64,000 nucleotides of DNA from Promethearchaeota archaeon. GTDB taxonomy: Archaea; Asgardarchaeota; Lokiarchaeia; Sigyniarchaeales; SOKP01. A program made the translations under genes and the position numbers. Position 1 is the stretch's first letter, and each line of letters begins with the position of its first letter. Positions 1 to 18,389 of the stretch are shown here, one piece after another. The notes beneath the pieces were generated by a model that worked only from the letters and a program-made list of their open reading frames with translations, made no database searches and was not told the DNA's origin. Location: positions 32,001 to 96,000 of the forward strand of contig JAHLWS010000071.1 of the NCBI GenBank assembly GCA_019057795.1. Direction: 5' to 3'.

Positions 1-10
1 GATATTAAAA

Positions 11-295
11 ATGGATAAAAGTACGGTAATTAGACACTTACTTTCTAAATCTATCCGAGAAGTAAAAATACAAACCTTATTAGATGAATATAGGAAGGGA
101 AAACTGTCTCTCGGGAAAGCTGCTGAATTAGCAGGAGTTAATTTATGGGAATTCATTGAACATTGTAGGAGGAATCAAATTAAATTAGATTTAACTGAAG
201 AGGAAGTGGAAATTGGAATACGCAGAGTTGAGAAAATTGATATTCAAAAATATAAAGAAACTATTAAGAACTCATTAAAATCACTTGAAAAATGA
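11..295 (+). CDS. UPF0175-family HTH antitoxin-like protein (may begin before the window)
   Basis: Motif YRKGKLSLGKAAELAGVNLWEFIE is typical of UPF0175. Confidence 0.8.
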   Translation: MDKSTVIRHLLSKSIREVKIQTLLDEYRKGKLSLGKAAELAGVNLWEFIEHCRRNQIKLDLTEEEVEIGIRRVEKIDIQKYKETIKNSLKSLEK

Positions 296-333: not shown

Positions 334-3210
334 TTAGAAGAGAATATTTTTTCTTCTCGCAATGTATTTAAAAAGTTCGATTCCAATTAATCCCGGTAAA
401 GCAAACAAAACGCATATTATCCAATCTGTTCCACTCAGAAAGAGAAAATTAATTTGTAAGTTTAAACCAAACACATCGTTCACGTAATAATTTACTTGGT
501 AAGAGAATATAATATAGAGGACGTGTAAAGCTAGGGTAAATAGACTTACAATTAACAAAGAAAGACAGAATTCTTCCTTCAAACTTTTTAAAAAAGATTT
601 ATTTGGGCGCCTAAAAGTCCAGATAAACGTCGTTTCAACAATATATAATGTTGTGATGAACATAGTTCTTGCTTTTTGTGCCAACAATTCGGGTTGTGTT
701 GATCCAACTGGAATATAACTAATAGTAGGATTAAGATTCCACTCATTCAACGGGATAAAACCTCCTAAGGTAAATTGAAGAACTAATACCAGACCAATTC
801 CCATTAACAACGCTTGTATTAACATCATAATCCACATATTTTTGTTTAATAATTGTTGTTCGTCTCTAGGTGGTTCTTTCATTACATCCGAGGGATGTCT
901 ATCGATCACCAAGGCTAGAGCCGGTAGTGAGTGGACTATTCCAAAAATATAGATATGTTGCCATTCTGAACTGAACAAATCGAAGAAAGGGATGAATTCG
1001 TAGGTAAAAAATATGGTTGCTTCCATTATGTTTAAACAGATGAAAAAATATATAATGGTGCGAATTTTAGCAAACAAACCACGGCCAATTTTTACGCCCT
1101 TGACAATGGAAGAAAAATTGTCGTCACTTATGACCATATCCGCAGTTTCTTTAGCTACATCTGTCCCTGTAATTCCCATAGCTATACCGGCATTAGCAAG
1201 CTTTAAAGCTAAAGCGTCGTTAATACCGTCTCCAGTCATAGCGCATATGTGATCTTGTGATTGATATTTTTTTACTATTATTTCTTTGTCAGAAGGATCG
1301 ACTCTTGCAAAAACTGAAACTCTATTGAAATCTTTATCGTTTAAATTGATAATATCGTGCCCTTCTATTACTAAATCTCCCTCTTTGTAAATTCTCATTT
1401 GTGCAGCAATAGTTTTAGCGGTTGCTGGGTGGTCTCCAGTGATCATAACGGTTTTAATACCGCCAGATTCGCTTTCTTCCACAGCAGATCTTACATCTGG
1501 GCGTGGTGGGTCTAAAATTGAAACGAAACTCAAAAAAGTTAGATTGGTTTCAGTTTTTTCTCTATTTAAACTATTTAAATCTTTTATTTTCTCGACATTC
1601 TTATAAGCAACGGCTAAAGTTCGGTATCCTTGTTTGGCTCGCAACTGGATTTTTTTTAAAAGTTCTTCTTTTAAATCTTCGTCTAATGCCTTTATATCGC
1701 CGTTGACTTCGATTTTATTTGATATTTCTAAGATCCTTTCGGGAGCCCCTTTAGTAAAAGCAAAAAAATCCTTGGGATTTGATTTAAGTTTACATATAGT
1801 GGTCATTCGTTTAATTTCAGAGCTGAATGAAAATTCTTTCAATATTTCGTACTTATCTTTTATATCGTGGTTAATATATCCCGCTTTTTCAGATAGTACT
1901 AATAATGCGGCTTCTGTTGGTGACCCTAAAGCTTTTCTTACGGCTATTTCATTTACATTTTTTAGCCGAACTTTAACATCCTCGTATATTAATTTAACAT
2001 TGTTGTTTAATACGATTGAATCGATAAATTTCTGAAATGTAAGATTATCTTTTAACTCCACTTCGTTATTATTTTCAAGAATTATTCCCTCAACATCATA
2101 ACCAGTACCTGAAACATGATATTCTATATTGTTTATCCAAAATCTTTCTACAGTCATTTCGTTTTTGGTTATAGTCCCTGTTTTATCTGCACATATTATC
2201 GAAACTCGACCAAGAGATTCAATTGAAGCTAAGTTTTTTATAATTACCCCACTTTGAGCCATATTTAATACACCAGTTATGAGGACAAGCGTTGTAAGGA
2301 GTGGTAAGTTTATGGGCATGATATTCATTGACCTTAAAATAGAACTTATTAAAGCATCGCTAATATAGTCGCCATATAAATTACCTTCTATTCCTAAAAG
2401 CACAAATTTATAGGTAATTAAGATTATTAAATTAATAATAACTATAGTTCCAAGGATATAGCCTAACCTATTCAATTTTCGCGTCAAAGGTATATCTTCA
2501 ATGCTACCCATTTCATTTAATTGATTTGAGATTTTACCAATCTCCGTATTTGTTCCCGTTCCAATCACTAAGGCTTTTCCCCTACCTGTGTGAATGTAGG
2601 TCCCCATAAACACCATGTTGGTTCGTTTCTGGAGGGGTACTTTGTTATTTTCGAGGGGAGATTTGTTTTTTTCTACAGGCTCACTTTCTCCACTAAGTGG
2701 AGCTTCATCGATAGTTAGATTGGTAAATTCGATAATTCTAGCATCTGCAGCGATTTTATCGCCTTGTCTTAACAAGATAACGTCTCCAGGTACGATTTCC
2801 CTTGTAGGAATCTCAAATTGAATTCCATCCCTTAAAACAGTCGCTTTTAAAGCGGCAATTTTTCTTAAGGATTCTAGCGCTTTTTGCGCTCTGAATTGTT
2901 GAACAATTACAGTAGTCGAATTCATGATGACTACCGCGAAAGTGATGATAGTAGAACTTGGAGAGCCAAGAATCAAGATAATTGTTCCTGATATAATTAA
3001 AATAATGATTAAAAAATTAAAAATTGGTGCCAAATAAATTTTCCATAAAGACTTCTTAATTTTAGGTAATTCGTTATAACCATATTCAAGATATTTACTC
3101 TCTATTTCTAAAGACTTCAAACCATTATTAGGATCTGTTTGAAATTTTGAAACTAAATCATCTATTGATTGAGTTAGTAATTCTTCAGAGCGAACTTGAA
3201 TTTGACTCAT
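334..3210 (-). CDS. P-type ATPase with P2A-like backbone and atypical transport site
   Basis: DKTGT phosphorylation motif, KGAPE, DPPR, MITGD, TGDGIND; about 10 TM helices; TM4 reads PINLP instead of PEGLP. Confidence 0.93.
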   Translation of the reverse strand: MSQIQVRSEELLTQSIDDLVSKFQTDPNNGLKSLEIESKYLEYGYNELPKIKKSLWKIYLAPIFNFLIIILIISGTIILILGSPSSTIITFAVVIMNSTTVIVQQFRAQKALESLRKIAALKATVLRDGIQFEIPTREIVPGDVILLRQGDKIAADARIIEFTNLTIDEAPLSGESEPVEKNKSPLENNKVPLQKRTNMVFMGTYIHTGRGKALVIGTGTNTEIGKISNQLNEMGSIEDIPLTRKLNRLGYILGTIVIINLIILITYKFVLLGIEGNLYGDYISDALISSILRSMNIMPINLPLLTTLVLITGVLNMAQSGVIIKNLASIESLGRVSIICADKTGTITKNEMTVERFWINNIEYHVSGTGYDVEGIILENNNEVELKDNLTFQKFIDSIVLNNNVKLIYEDVKVRLKNVNEIAVRKALGSPTEAALLVLSEKAGYINHDIKDKYEILKEFSFSSEIKRMTTICKLKSNPKDFFAFTKGAPERILEISNKIEVNGDIKALDEDLKEELLKKIQLRAKQGYRTLAVAYKNVEKIKDLNSLNREKTETNLTFLSFVSILDPPRPDVRSAVEESESGGIKTVMITGDHPATAKTIAAQMRIYKEGDLVIEGHDIINLNDKDFNRVSVFARVDPSDKEIIVKKYQSQDHICAMTGDGINDALALKLANAGIAMGITGTDVAKETADMVISDDNFSSIVKGVKIGRGLFAKIRTIIYFFICLNIMEATIFFTYEFIPFFDLFSSEWQHIYIFGIVHSLPALALVIDRHPSDVMKEPPRDEQQLLNKNMWIMMLIQALLMGIGLVLVLQFTLGGFIPLNEWNLNPTISYIPVGSTQPELLAQKARTMFITTLYIVETTFIWTFRRPNKSFLKSLKEEFCLSLLIVSLFTLALHVLYIIFSYQVNYYVNDVFGLNLQINFLFLSGTDWIICVLFALPGLIGIELFKYIARRKNILF

Positions 3211-3320: not shown

Positions 3321-4283
3321 TTAAAGGTCTAATTCTTGCGGATCCCCTAAGATCTCCTTTAATACATTGTATCTTTTTCTAATTGTCGTACTTGAGAATC
3401 GACTGGTGCGTTCAACGATACTTTGAGTAAAAATTTTACGATTCTCCAAGGATTGGCCAATATAATAGATTAAACCCGCTGTAAATGCTTTGTGATTCGA
3501 ATTTTGAATTTGTTCGTACGTGATTTTGTTTAAAATTTTATTTGCTACTAACTGCATATCTAATTTCAATTTAGTATATTCTGTTTTATTGGATAGATGT
3601 TGTTTGACATCTCGAAATAATATATTATTAATATCTTTTTGAAACAAGATTTTAATTTTATTTTTTATCTGTTCTTCTAAGTTAGAAGCACTTTCGGCAA
3701 TTTTTAACCTTCTTTCTGTTCTTTTTACTTTTATCATAGCATTATTAAGCATCTTTTTGTTTATCTTATGTCCTAATTCTCTTGTTTTTTTTATATATTC
3801 TTCAATTCTCACGTTTGTAGTTTCTTTTATCTCCATCCATACTATTGCGAGAAAGATAATGACCATATTTTCGTATGTTTGTCTATGATGTTTGTTATAT
3901 TGCAAATATTTCGCTTTAATTTCTTGATATTTTACAGAATCTATACTTAAACCAATGCCATAACCCTTTAACAAGTCAATCGTCTTTTTCTGTTCTGAAA
4001 AGCTGCTTTGATAGTCCCGAAACCATTTGTTTAAAGTATTGATTTGATCGTATCGTTTTTTTGTCTTTGGGTCCTGAATTGCTTTTGAACTTCCTGTTCG
4101 AATTTTTCTTTCATATTCTAACCGGGAATCAGAAAAATAGTTAGAAGGAGACGATGTTTCAAAAGCAACATAATCTTCTAAGATTATACCACAATCTTGG
4201 CACACAAAGTATCCTCTCTCTTGTTTTACGTTTTTGTGGGTACAAGCGGTTAATTCCTTACTATTTTTTTTTTTATCGTTCAA
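3321..4283 (-). CDS. Divergent TFIIB/TFB-like protein
   Basis: N-terminal CxH...CxxCG zinc ribbon; C-terminal cyclin-like repeat ending TQSIVERTSRFSSTTIRKRY. Confidence 0.7.
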   Translation of the reverse strand: MNDKKKNSKELTACTHKNVKQERGYFVCQDCGIILEDYVAFETSSPSNYFSDSRLEYERKIRTGSSKAIQDPKTKKRYDQINTLNKWFRDYQSSFSEQKKTIDLLKGYGIGLSIDSVKYQEIKAKYLQYNKHHRQTYENMVIIFLAIVWMEIKETTNVRIEEYIKKTRELGHKINKKMLNNAMIKVKRTERRLKIAESASNLEEQIKNKIKILFQKDINNILFRDVKQHLSNKTEYTKLKLDMQLVANKILNKITYEQIQNSNHKAFTAGLIYYIGQSLENRKIFTQSIVERTSRFSSTTIRKRYNVLKEILGDPQELDL

Positions 4284-4422: not shown

Positions 4423-4992
4423 ATGGAACGTAAAATCATTTTAAAATGGTTATCTATTTTTAGCGTCAGTTTCTTTATACTTTCAATAGTAGAACTGATT
4501 GATCTTATTGTTTTTAGTACAGTAATTAGTATGGATTTAGATGGTCAGCAATTTACTATTATTAACTTAATATTTCAATCAGGGTTTATGTCTATTCACG
4601 CACCACTTTTGTGGATATTTCTTCTGTGCGTAATTTGCGCATTCATCGCCTTAGCACTTTCAATATTCAGAGTTGCAAAGAAACAAATCATTGAAAATTA
4701 TAATCTCGCCAAGTTTATGTTACTTATAGGCTTGTTTTTAGTAATTGGTGGCTTTATCAAAATGAGTTTTATTGTATTATTAGGTAACAATACTATTAGT
4801 ACAGGTTTAACCACAATTACATTTCAAGAAGCGTTATATACGCCTACTATTACCTCTGTAATTGGAGCTATAATGTGGGTTTATTTTATTGTTGTTGTAT
4901 GTAGTCTTTTAATTTCTGGCTTGATCTTTGGTGGGATTGGTCTTCAATGGATGCTCCTTATTCAAGATGAAAGTGCCTCTCAAGATCAATAG
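4423..4992 (+). CDS. Hypothetical 4-TM membrane protein
   Basis: 189 aa ORF with four hydrophobic segments. Confidence 0.75.
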   Translation: MERKIILKWLSIFSVSFFILSIVELIDLIVFSTVISMDLDGQQFTIINLIFQSGFMSIHAPLLWIFLLCVICAFIALALSIFRVAKKQIIENYNLAKFMLLIGLFLVIGGFIKMSFIVLLGNNTISTGLTTITFQEALYTPTITSVIGAIMWVYFIVVVCSLLISGLIFGGIGLQWMLLIQDESASQDQ

Positions 4993-6833: not shown

Positions 6834-7793
6834 TCAAGTTAAAGTTAAGTTTAACTTTTCTTTGATTTGTTTTGCTCTACTACGTAATGTGACCTCCGTA
6901 ATTTTAGCTACATCTGCCACGAGAGATTGGGTTTTTCTAATTGCTCCGTCTTTAGCTGCGATATAAATACATGCGGCAGCTAAACCTTTTGGATCTTTTC
7001 CAGTTCGCGCTAACCCATTCTTAGATGCGTTTCTCAACATTTCTATAGCAACTTTTTGAACTTTCATGGGTAAGTCTAGCTCGTTCCCAAATCGAAATAC
7101 AAGCTTTTCTGCCGTAATAGGCTGATATCTTAAACCCAATTCGGGTAAGATTTCACGGATAATCATTGAAAGACTTCTATGTACTGTTCTTCGCGGCGTG
7201 AGTGACGCTTCACAGACTTCATCTAATAATCGAGGGAAATCATGAACCCTAATCGCTGCGTATAAAGAACCTGCTATAAACCCATTAATAGATCTTCCCA
7301 TTGTTAACTTTTTTTTAGCTACAATACTATAAATTTTCCAAGCCGTTTCTGAAATATATTCAGGAATATTTAATTTTGAGGTTAACATTTTTAATTTGGG
7401 TTTTGCTTCCCAAAAGTTTCGTTCTATGCTAGATATTAAAGAATTTTGAATTTTTGATAAGCGAGAAAATAAAGCTTGCTCTTTAGGACCTATTGATTTT
7501 CCTTTTGAGTCGGTCTTGGTGGTAGGAAGCATTGTTCGAGGGCCAAAATCCCTCCAACGGGGCTCAGTTCTTCTTCTATTCTGTATTTCTTCCACTGTAT
7601 ACGCTCTTCGCTCATTTCCTACATATGTTCGTTCTGCAATCATACCACAGTTAAGACATACTCTATTACCATCACGTTCTTCAATAAATGGATTATCACA
7701 ACACTTAATACTACTTGTAGAGGACAAATTATCTTGATCCTTATTCTGAGATTTTATTAGATCACGGTAATTGCTATTCATATTATATATCAC
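6834..7793 (-). CDS. tfb: Transcription initiation factor IIB
   Basis: Zinc ribbon plus two cyclin repeats (GRSI..AGSLYAAIR; GKDPKGLAAACIY; TEVTLRSR). Confidence 0.93.
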   Translation of the reverse strand: MIYNMNSNYRDLIKSQNKDQDNLSSTSSIKCCDNPFIEERDGNRVCLNCGMIAERTYVGNERRAYTVEEIQNRRRTEPRWRDFGPRTMLPTTKTDSKGKSIGPKEQALFSRLSKIQNSLISSIERNFWEAKPKLKMLTSKLNIPEYISETAWKIYSIVAKKKLTMGRSINGFIAGSLYAAIRVHDFPRLLDEVCEASLTPRRTVHRSLSMIIREILPELGLRYQPITAEKLVFRFGNELDLPMKVQKVAIEMLRNASKNGLARTGKDPKGLAAACIYIAAKDGAIRKTQSLVADVAKITEVTLRSRAKQIKEKLNLTLT

Positions 7794-17279: not shown

Positions 17280-17831
17280 TTAAATAAATATTTGGATTAA
17301 AACTAGAATAAATAAAGGTGTTAGAAAATCTGCTAAAGATGTAACCATGGGAATTAAAAAATTATTGGGATCTTTACCTTTCTTAAATATGAATATAGAA
17401 CTAATAAATAATAGCACAAACATCAAGCCAAAAAGAATCAAAATAGTAATAATTATAATTGATATTATCAATAACGGATTAACAATTTCTATTCCAGTTG
17501 CACTTCCAATTAAGTATCCTAAGCTTATTAATGCAACTAGGCTTAATAAAATTGTCATAAGTAACCCATAAAAATCTTGCTTTAATCTATCAGAAACTTG
17601 TATTTTTGGAGATAGGGTTCCTAAATATAGGTGTGAAGTAAGACGCGAAATTAAAACCGTTGAAATATCACCAATTAAAGAATTTAAAGAAGGTAAAACT
17701 AATAAAATGATTGGAAAGGTATACAAAATCTCTTCATTATTGGATAAAAGCGTACCTGAAAAAAGACCCATTATAGAACTAATAATAACGATTATTATAG
17801 ATTCCTTAAAGATCTTTTTGAAGTAATCCAA
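17280..17831 (-). CDS. MgtE-type integral membrane domain protein
   Basis: SRLTSHLYLG and DPNNFLIPMVTSLAD motifs. Confidence 0.82.
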   Translation of the reverse strand: MDYFKKIFKESIIIVIISSIMGLFSGTLLSNNEEILYTFPIILLVLPSLNSLIGDISTVLISRLTSHLYLGTLSPKIQVSDRLKQDFYGLLMTILLSLVALISLGYLIGSATGIEIVNPLLIISIIIITILILFGLMFVLLFISSIFIFKKGKDPNNFLIPMVTSLADFLTPLFILVLIQIFI

Positions 17832-17834
17832 AAA

Positions 17835-18389
17835 TTACGGCACCCCCAGTAAAATAATTGTTAAATAGAAGCTAATGACAGTAATAAAATCATCAACGGC
17901 TGTCATTATTGGATTCACAATGTTATTTGGGTCTAAACCGCGCTTAAACGCGAAGAGATTTAAGGCAGTAGAACAAGGAATTGAAACTGTTAATGTCAAT
18001 AGAATTGAAATTATTGGTATAACAATTAACAAACCAATATGAAAAATAAAGAGTCTAATTAAAAAGAGATTTAAAATAATACTTAGAATTCCAATTGCTA
18101 TCGCAGTTATTAAGGCTAGTACATATGTTGCTAATATGTTTTCAAACCACGATTTCAAATTAAATTCCCCAATAATTAAATCTCTCGAAGTCCTTGCTAT
18201 AAAGGGACCGCTTAAATTTCCCCTTAGCGAAAGCAAAGCAGGTATAATTAGAATAAGTATTAGAAAGCTCTCAAAAGAGACTATTGAAATAGAAAGAATG
18301 ATTCCCGCGAAGATATCTCCCACAATTGAAACCATCTCAGATGGAAAAGTTTCTTTAACGATTTTACCTTTTGTATCTCGAGCTTCCAT
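17835..18389 (-). CDS. MgtE-type integral membrane domain protein
   Basis: IPALLSLRGN and GLDPNNIVNPIMTAVDD motifs. Confidence 0.82.
   Translation of the reverse strand: MEARDTKGKIVKETFPSEMVSIVGDIFAGIILSISIVSFESFLILILIIPALLSLRGNLSGPFIARTSRDLIIGEFNLKSWFENILATYVLALITAIAIGILSIILNLFLIRLFIFHIGLLIVIPIISILLTLTVSIPCSTALNLFAFKRGLDPNNIVNPIMTAVDDFITVISFYLTIILLGVP

Follow-up and report, generated by a model that had tools for sequence, protein, structure and literature searches.

Near the start of a 64,000-nucleotide stretch of contig JAHLWS010000071.1 from a Promethearchaeota archaeon (assembly GCA_019057795.1, positions 32,001 to 96,000; the whole stretch is called the window below), one complete, open reading frame (ORF) of 958 codons encodes a P-type ATPase, P0001. 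In its fourth transmembrane (TM) helix, M4, the motif PEGLP of Ca2+ pumps reads PINLP, and in M6 a His occupies the position of a characteristic Asp; related pumps sharing this combination are referred to here as the PxN/His clade. The gene and its principal motifs, all on the minus strand, are:

334-3210, minus strand: P-type ATPase gene P0001, a PINLP-type member of the PxN/His clade (ORF call and translation, Pfam, AlphaFold2 model)
2896-3036, minus strand: cytoplasmic funnel positions of M1 and M2, Pro62 and Gln105; canonical relatives have Gln (98%) and Glu (99%) there
2683-2694, minus strand: A-domain dephosphorylation motif SGES, residues 173-176 (translation)
2302-2325, minus strand: M4 motif NIMPINLP (PINLP at 2302-2316), with Pro299-Ile300-Asn301-Leu302-Pro303 in place of P-E-G-L-P (LMCA1 alignment and column counts)
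2173-2187, minus strand: phosphorylation motif DKTGT with Asp342, invariant in the three family alignments
1210-1233, minus strand: hinge motif GDGINDAL; Leu in the clade versus Pro (GDGVNDAP) in 96% of canonical relatives
1021-1032, minus strand: M5 NIME, with Asn727 and Glu730 as the equivalents of SERCA N768 and E771 (alignment; M5 context C-L-N727-I-M-E730)
922-960, minus strand: M6 QHIYIFGIVHSLP, with Phe756, Val759 and His760 at the SERCA N796, T799 and D800 positions; His760 is encoded at 931-933
697-765, minus strand: short L7/8 outer loop with a clade-specific insertion and conserved Pro820 and Asn825 (alignment and model)
634-636, minus strand: M8 Glu859, at the SERCA E908 position by a T-M anchor (family alignment)

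P0001 carries the full P2-style set of Pfam domains (Cation_ATPase_N, E1-E2_ATPase, Cation_ATPase, Hydrolase, Cation_ATPase_C) and has P2 architecture in its N- and C-terminal domains, its ten TM helices and its M5 residues N727 and E730. Its catalytic motifs are all intact: DKTGT, SGES, KGAPE, DPPR, TGD and GDGINDAL. A preliminary description of this gene had placed PINLP in M4 at 2302-2316, and re-deriving the coordinates gave the same interval. It had also read, by eye, the replacement of SERCA residues E309 by Ile, N796 by Phe and D800 by His. These are now alignment results, both from the columns of a 141-row alignment and from a HMMER alignment with Listeria LMCA1, in which "mpinlp" lies over "ipealS" and "ifgivhslpa" over "inlvndslpa", so that Ile300 aligns with the Glu of PEGL-type motifs, and Phe756 and His760 with the Asn and the Asp of M6. 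The N and E of M5 and the Glu of M8, described earlier as kept, are indeed present as N727, E730 and Glu859. For the last of these, HMMER left M7-M10 unaligned to SERCA, and the C-terminal third searched by itself against the PDB gave no match at 1e-8; its equivalence to E908 therefore rests on the family alignment and the anchor, a conserved ARTM...E...R pattern that suggests the same position. By the SERCA1a sequence, Pro62 and Gln105 are taken to correspond to Q56 and E109 of the entry funnel. Since all SERCA site II side-chain ligands (E309, N796, D800) are replaced, here by Ile300, Phe756 and His760, it is almost certain that this pump does not handle Ca2+ canonically, as had been suggested.

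The predicted fold is that of a P2 pump. The AlphaFold2 model (mean predicted local distance difference test score, pLDDT, 87.7; predicted template modelling score, pTM, 0.83) has ten TM helices, with breaks by DSSP at residues 296-301 in M4 and 760 in M6; unwound segments of M4 and M6 form the cation site in P2 pumps. All of the top 50 Foldseek matches are P2 pumps. In the VIA-align comparison LMCA1 leads (Z 35.0, 845 aligned residues, 31% identity), followed by SPCA1, PfATP4, ACA8, SERCA, PMCA and Na,K-ATPase and then by Pma1 (Z about 31); the P2 structures span Z 35-32 with about 850-900 aligned residues and 26-31% identity. The highest-ranked P4 structure is ATP11C (Z 30.5, 663 aligned residues, 17% identity). 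No P5 or P1B structure is among the 50 VIA-align matches listed, which is not evidence of absence. LMCA1, SPCA1 and SERCA are the best PDB matches by both sequence and fold. Scores against NCBIfam models give the same placement: the P2A models rank first (454 and 438 bits), followed by P2D, P2B, P2C, P3A (328), P3B, P5 (234), P1B (210) and P4 (98). P0001 nevertheless falls under every curated cut-off among the models scored, including those of the two P2A models (TIGR01522, 454 bits against a cut-off of 798; TIGR01116, 438 against 703), in whose searches canonical relatives reach 620-823 bits. It is also unlike P1B pumps, with 210 bits against a TIGR01525 cut-off of 346, no Cys in M4, where P1B pumps have CPC, SPC or CPH, and ten TM helices instead of their eight.

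The unusual site is a property of a family. Among close homologues (70-97% identity), the named ones belonging to Lokiarchaeota/Promethearchaeota, Thor-, Hod- and Helarchaeota, the motif is kept in 120 of 120, as PINLP in 119 and PFNLP in one. An exhaustive search of 1.84 billion cluster representatives extended the family by about 35 clusters made at 50% identity, the most distant at 31-40% identity, in which M4 reads P-[I/F/V/W/L]-[N/S]-[I/L/F]; the second Pro is present in most of them and the M6 His in all. Every match ranking below these clusters has PEGLP together with N..TD in M6. The preliminary description had proposed checking whether PINL and the M6 His persist across Asgard homologues, and had named PEGL in close orthologues as the mark of a private mutation; the motif and the His persist, and those orthologues do not carry PEGL. 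Its reading of SGES for TGES is correct for P0001 and does not extend to the clade: SGES is limited to the 15 closest of the 120 homologues, the other 105 having TGES.

Column counts were taken from the 141-row alignment, which holds 98 canonical relatives and 43 clade rows, with SERCA numbering assigned by motif:

E309 position: Glu in 97 of 98 canonical rows; Ile 34, Phe 3, Val 3 and Trp 2 of 43 clade rows
G310 position: Gly in 88 of 98 canonical rows; Asn in 40 of 43 clade rows (N301)
N796 position: Asn in 94 of 98 canonical rows; Tyr 15 and Phe 14 of 43 clade rows
T799 position: Thr in 86 of 98 canonical rows; Val 19, Thr 8, Ala 6 and Ser 4 of 43 clade rows
D800 position: Asp in 93 of 98 canonical rows; His in 42 of 43 clade rows (H760)

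The M5 Glu (E771 position, E730) is present in 43 of 43 clade rows and the M5 Asn (N768 position, N727) in 39; the M8 Glu (E859) is present in 41 of 43, a stricter requirement than among the canonical relatives, where Glu (43) and Gln (50) divide the 98 rows. Other changes fixed in the clade put Pro in place of the Gln of M1, Gln in place of the Glu of M2 and Leu in place of the Pro in GDGVNDAP, and add the short L7/8 insertion. The site pattern is far beyond chance and is a family trait, not a private mutation; constraint on the Asn, Glu and Glu columns together with His and Asn is what would be expected if a site-I-like pocket were under selection.

In a FastTree phylogeny of 147 rows, with the CPC pumps of the same genome as outgroup, the PxN/His rows form one clade (35 of the 147 rows, Shimodaira-Hasegawa (SH)-like support 100) that adjoins 103 PEGL rows; six Asgard P3A H+-ATPases (over 1000 bits with TIGR01647, M4 PVALP or PAALP) fall outside it. 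An IQ-TREE analysis of 46 rows under LG+G4 recovers the clade (14 rows; SH approximate likelihood ratio test 100), with P3A outside at 99. In both trees the union of PxN and PEGL rows is supported at 98-99, with P3A and P1B outside; the backbone within P2 is not resolved in the IQ-TREE tree. The trees compare the PxN/His clade with PEGL, P3A and P1B pumps. The PxN/His clade arose inside or beside the prokaryotic, Ca-pump-like P2 pumps, separately from P3A. Its sister in the IQ-TREE tree (support 98) is a pump with PSGLP in M4 that still has NLVTD in M6 (P0264, 903 amino acids, from a Logan contig); this lineage may represent a stage at which the M4 Glu had been lost before the M6 Asp. A separate observation concerns five longer relatives (P0156, P0165, P0222, P0237 and P0256; 1543-1706 amino acids), in each of which the C-terminal half alone accommodates a whole PEGL-type pump and HMMER gives four matched stretches: these could be two P-type ATPases fused into one protein.

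A profile of the clade separates the two types, all seven checked loci at or above 1088 bits being PxN and all ten at or below 893 bits PEGL. At a strict threshold, clade members occur in 85 of 121 Asgard genomes that are at least 85% complete and in 53 of the 73 of high quality, with one to five copies in each genome that has any; 12 of the 23 Asgard families sampled carry them, and in the other 11 they were not found. P-type ATPases number five in the source genome. Two are CPC pumps, one is canonical (on contig C36, with PEGLV, M5 N..E, M6 N..TD and the M8 Glu), and the remaining two are PxN pumps arranged in tandem, P0001 and a PINIP-type protein of 966 amino acids with M5 INVFE, M6 QWIFLAITVHMFP and the M8 Glu. 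The latter is encoded at C71:28222-31122 (L006:10222-13122) on the minus strand, outside the window and just upstream of its first base. The PINIP-PINLP tandem recurs throughout the family to which the source genome belongs, and other families have a single PINIP gene.

A basal branch of the clade consists of 13 Thermoplasmatales/Thermoplasmatota records with VPWSFP in M4, N..E in M5 and ..STH[IL]FP in M6. Here the pump gene belongs to a compact cluster read in one direction: in 11 of the 13 records it is directly preceded by a GT4 glycosyltransferase gene that ends about 58 nucleotides before it, and a nucleoside-diphosphate (NDP)-sugar epimerase/dehydratase gene lies downstream in 9 of 13, with two membrane proteins in the block. 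The order (L033-L045, for example L033:1693-6954) is a 446-amino-acid protein, (a 138-amino-acid Cytochrom_C_asm-like protein), GT4, the PWSFP/His ATPase, (a 412-amino-acid PF06695 membrane protein) and the NDP-sugar epimerase.

Around P0001 itself, the following features lie in the window:

1-295, plus strand: 3' part of a UPF0175-family gene, between P0001 and its tandem PINIP-type paralogue
3321-4283, minus strand: 320-amino-acid protein, weakly matching TFIIB and with a CxxC...CxxC zinc ribbon at its N terminus, encoded immediately upstream of the ATPase gene in the same direction
4423-4992, plus strand: 189-amino-acid multi-pass membrane protein of no Pfam family, divergent from the TFB-like gene
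6834-7793, minus strand: bona fide TFIIB
17301-18245, minus strand: two adjacent ORFs of 184-185 amino acids, each with an MgtE membrane domain only

Together with a PIN-domain gene just upstream of the window, the UPF0175 gene makes up a pair resembling a toxin-antitoxin system (window 1-295 and L006:13449-14295) that separates the two ATPase genes; sister genomes have the PINIP and PINLP genes directly adjacent or split by other small inserts. The TFB-like gene is kept beside the ATPase in six loci of the family, and the small membrane protein is a neighbour in seven. The two MgtE-domain ORFs may be a split or minimal Mg2+ channel. Within the source genome's family the neighbours are DUF362, GNAT, the TFB-like gene, the small membrane protein and TFIIB; in another Asgard family they are panB, subtilase, MFS, PHP and TPR, and elsewhere they are heterogeneous. 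No neighbour is common across lineages at 21 + 7 + 2 Asgard loci; synteny is lineage-specific only and uninformative. Two isolated cases may be recorded: a ZIP-family metal transporter gene (L025:12348-13121, in G004) two genes upstream of a PINIP-type pump on the same strand, and, in one Asgard genome (G251), a presenilin-family protein encoded 330 nucleotides downstream (L108:11233-12606) of a PVNIP-type pump.

What might such a pump transport? The reading we prefer, with a probability of about 0.5, is that the PxN/His pumps move a small inorganic cation other than Ca2+ through a one-site Asn/Glu/Glu/His pocket. This follows from three features taken together: site II is erased, site I is kept with an added His and Asn, and E109 is neutralised. 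In the proposed mechanism, Ca2+ site II would be abolished by a bulky hydrophobic residue for E309, an aromatic one for N796 and His for D800; the almost invariant site-I ligands N768, E771 and E908 would be joined by the new polar residues His760 of M6 and Asn301 of M4, and the acidic cytoplasmic entry residue E109 would be neutralised to Gln. A single cation would then be bound between M4, M5, M6 and M8 by Asn, Glu, Glu and His, and the Post-Albers machinery would be that of other P-type pumps, with DKTGT, S/TGES, KGAPE, DPPR, TGD, GDGxND and the unwound M4 and M6 all kept. Sets of His, Glu and Asn are typical of transition-metal sites in membrane transporters, and the combination Asn/Glu/Glu/His would be a better match for borderline divalent metals (Mn, Fe, Zn, Co, Ni) or for a proton relay than for Ca2+ or Mg2+. 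Genome context also speaks for this reading: with one canonical PEGL pump and two CPC pumps present in the source genome, export of Ca and of Cu/Zn is covered separately, and at one Asgard locus a ZIP gene lies two genes away from the pump. A transition-metal divalent (Mn2+, Fe2+, Zn2+, Co2+ or Ni2+) is tentatively the most likely class of substrate, with H+ or a monovalent ion next.

Compared with the P2A Ca2+(/Mn2+)-ATPases LMCA1, SPCA1/PMR1 and SERCA, P0001 has the same domain order, ten TM helices, TGES-type A domain, second M4 Pro, M5 N..E and M8 Glu, but differs in PEGLP to PINLP, in the M6 N..TD to aromatic..V-H, in the funnel Glu to Gln and in GDGVNDAP to GDGxNDAL. The one-site P2 pumps LMCA1, SPCA and PMCA have kept site II and lost site I; the PxN/His clade is the opposite, keeping site I and losing site II.

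Several observations weigh against the preferred reading. What is shown is membership of the clade, the residue pattern and how well it is conserved; that these residues make up the site, which ion it takes and which way that ion moves are what we infer, and the putative convergence of N301, N727, E730, H760 and E859 on one pocket is drawn from homology to SERCA, not from measured distances. The role of a buried His might just as well be to carry a proton or to provide a tethered positive charge. An organic or lipid-linked substrate would also agree with the aromatic M4 (Trp or Phe, in the basal branches) and M6 residues, taken together with the GT4/epimerase operon of Thermoplasmatota. The 28 Asgard loci compared share no metal-binding tail, metallochaperone or metal regulator beside the gene, and other metal transporters (ZIP, CDF and two of P1B type) are present in the source genome. 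That genome has no CorA, CNNM or NRAMP matches, and its transporter inventory as a whole singles out no ion.

Of the alternatives, the one that survives best, although unlikely, is a proton (or H+/monovalent-cation) pump with His760 and Glu730/Glu859 as the protonatable centre and the hydrophobic M4 residue in a P3A-like role. In P3 pumps, too, the PEGL Glu is replaced by Ile or Val (PMC4937031), and M4 of the Asgard P3A pumps compared here has PVALP or PAALP. Like the P3A H+-ATPases AHA2, Pma1 and the archaeal MJ1226 type, with PIAMP or PVGLP described in M4 (PMC4937031), P0001 has a hydrophobic residue after the M4 Pro and keeps the second Pro. The loss of the E109 funnel residue to Gln fits a substrate that needs no electrostatic attraction, and the source genome has no true P3A pump, a type found over the cut-off in 31 of 201 genomes of the phylum. 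Against a proton pump, the clade is unrelated to P3A in both trees and P0001 scores 328 bits with TIGR01647, for which the cut-off is 615; P3A pumps lack the P2-type N- and C-terminal Pfam domains and depend on the M6 Asp, precisely the residue that is lost here to His. Moreover, genomes of the same genus hold both a true P3A and the PxN pair, so the two are not alternatives to each other.

The preliminary description had suggested a possible connection with the P4 lipid flippases, as a carrier of a non-metal substrate such as a lipid, as an archaeal intermediate toward P4 chemistry or by convergence on it. P4 ATPases are known only in eukaryotes (PMC10654040), and the Ile of their PISL motif does sit at the PEGL-Glu position, so that this part of the argument stands; but P3 ATPases also have Ile or Val there (PMC4937031), and Ile at this position, being common to P3 pumps, is therefore non-diagnostic for P4. 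The resemblance to ATP8A2, Drs2p and ATP11C extends to ten TM helices and an M4 order of Pro, hydrophobic, small polar, Leu; in P0001, Asn comes after the Ile, and then the second Pro that characterises P2 and P3. The remaining P4 traits, DGET for TGES, a Lys-Asn pair in M5 (ATP8A2 K873/N874) and a retained M6 Asn (N905) (PMC4937031), are replaced in P0001 by S/TGES in the A domain, by Leu-Asn..Glu in M5, and by Phe at the Asn and His at the Asp position in M6. With the P4 model TIGR01652, P0001 scores 97.8 bits against a cut-off of 431, over residues 320-611 of the P and N domains only. Four other clade members score 86-147 bits, compared with 80-103 for four PEGL pumps, and the P5 model likewise gives clade members no more score than ordinary PEGL pumps; a search of the whole source genome had a best match of 67 bits. 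No CDC50 protein (PF03381) was found in the source genome, which is 100% complete, nor in 14 control genomes, so that this search had no positive control; P4B pumps need no CDC50 subunit. A P4 relative or an intermediate toward P4 finds no support in the hidden Markov model (HMM) scores, in the A-domain and M5/M6 motifs or in the trees of PxN, PEGL, P3A and P1B rows, which place the clade with prokaryotic P2. The M4 motif is at most convergent on P4, and the finding has no bearing on the origin of the eukaryotic flippases.

A non-metal, amphipathic or lipid-linked substrate, such as a glycolipid, a polyprenyl-phosphate sugar or an organic cation, could still have been reached by convergence on a P4-like M4, although this is rather improbable. 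The P-[I/W/F/V]-[N/S]-[L/I/F] motif does resemble PISL, and the Thermoplasmatota cluster with GT4 (11 of 13) and epimerase (9 of 13) is the sole hint from gene context. The genomes that show this synteny are related, however, and may simply have inherited the order of these genes, and the GT4 cluster equally fits the supply of a divalent cation to surface glycosylation, as by SPCA/PMR1 in the Golgi; among 30 Asgard loci (28 of them from at least ten families) there is no recurrent neighbour from a glyco- or lipid pathway. Neither HMM scores, fold ranking nor tree shows affinity to P4 or P5; TGES stands in place of DGET, the P4 residues of M5 and M6 are absent, and the charged and polar residues that are near-invariant at the Ca site-I positions would be unnecessary in a lipid groove. 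The more specific proposal, that the clade left inorganic cations convergently for a lipid-linked or amphipathic substrate through a hydrophobic-gate M4 like that of P4 flippases, is improbable; if true, the archaea most closely related to eukaryotes would contain the first "giant-substrate" P-type ATPase from outside eukaryotes.

Also doubtful is transport of Ca2+ (or Mg2+) by a non-canonical site, possibly in the reversed direction, like that of the mycobacterial P6 pump CtpE. A P-type pump without the M6 Asp does transport Ca2+ (PMC10654040; PMC5615198): in CtpE, which takes up Ca2+, this otherwise omnipresent residue has been replaced by Ile, with PEGL kept (PMC10654040). Both CtpE and the PxN/His clade are prokaryotic offshoots of a P2-like scaffold that lack the M6 Asp, the equivalents of N768, E771 and E908 are kept in the clade, and the source genome has no CorA, CNNM or NRAMP and only the two short MgtE-domain ORFs, all of which count for this reading. 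But CtpE retains PEGL and exchanged Asp for Ile, whereas the clade has lost the Glu and exchanged Asp for His. A canonical Ca-type pump is present in the same genome, and His is a poor ligand for hard ions such as Ca2+ and Mg2+.

That P0001 is a decayed or non-transporting copy (private mutation, pseudogene or sequencing artefact), for which only the unusual motifs speak, is ruled out by conservation: the frame is open at full length, the catalytic motifs are intact, and the site is kept in 120 of 120 close homologues and about 35 clusters to 31-40% identity, in a clade present in 85 of 121 genomes.

The preferred reading, a single-site pump for a cation other than Ca2+, bears on how these genes are classified. 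P-type ATPase families are defined largely by transport-site chemistry, and the putative PxN/His site, with site II erased and site I joined by His, matches no characterised P-type class with which it was compared. The clade is a real, conserved subfamily of P2-derived pumps with a rebuilt transport site and is apparently undescribed: no description of it was found in the literature on Asgard P-type ATPases or on PINLP and PINIP motifs. Its members are annotated everywhere as "Ca2+-transporting" or "cation-translocating" ATPases, and the Ca2+-ATPase label, judged by the residues at the site, appears to be a mis-annotation. P6 is the only P-type family added since 1998, and according to a 2023 review further ones are to be expected from prokaryotes (PMC10654040); the PxN/His clade, deep and abundant in Asgard archaea, is a clean candidate for a new family.

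There is also a consequence for Asgard physiology. A study of the Asgard transportome counts these genes as Ca2+ pumps and argues from them for Ca2+ signalling (PMC7997004). For the PxN/His clade this inference is unsafe; because a canonical Ca-type pump co-exists with the PxN genes, Ca export does not depend on them. Identifying the substrate would fill a gap in the ion and metal physiology of Asgard archaea and would show how P2 pumps switch specificity.

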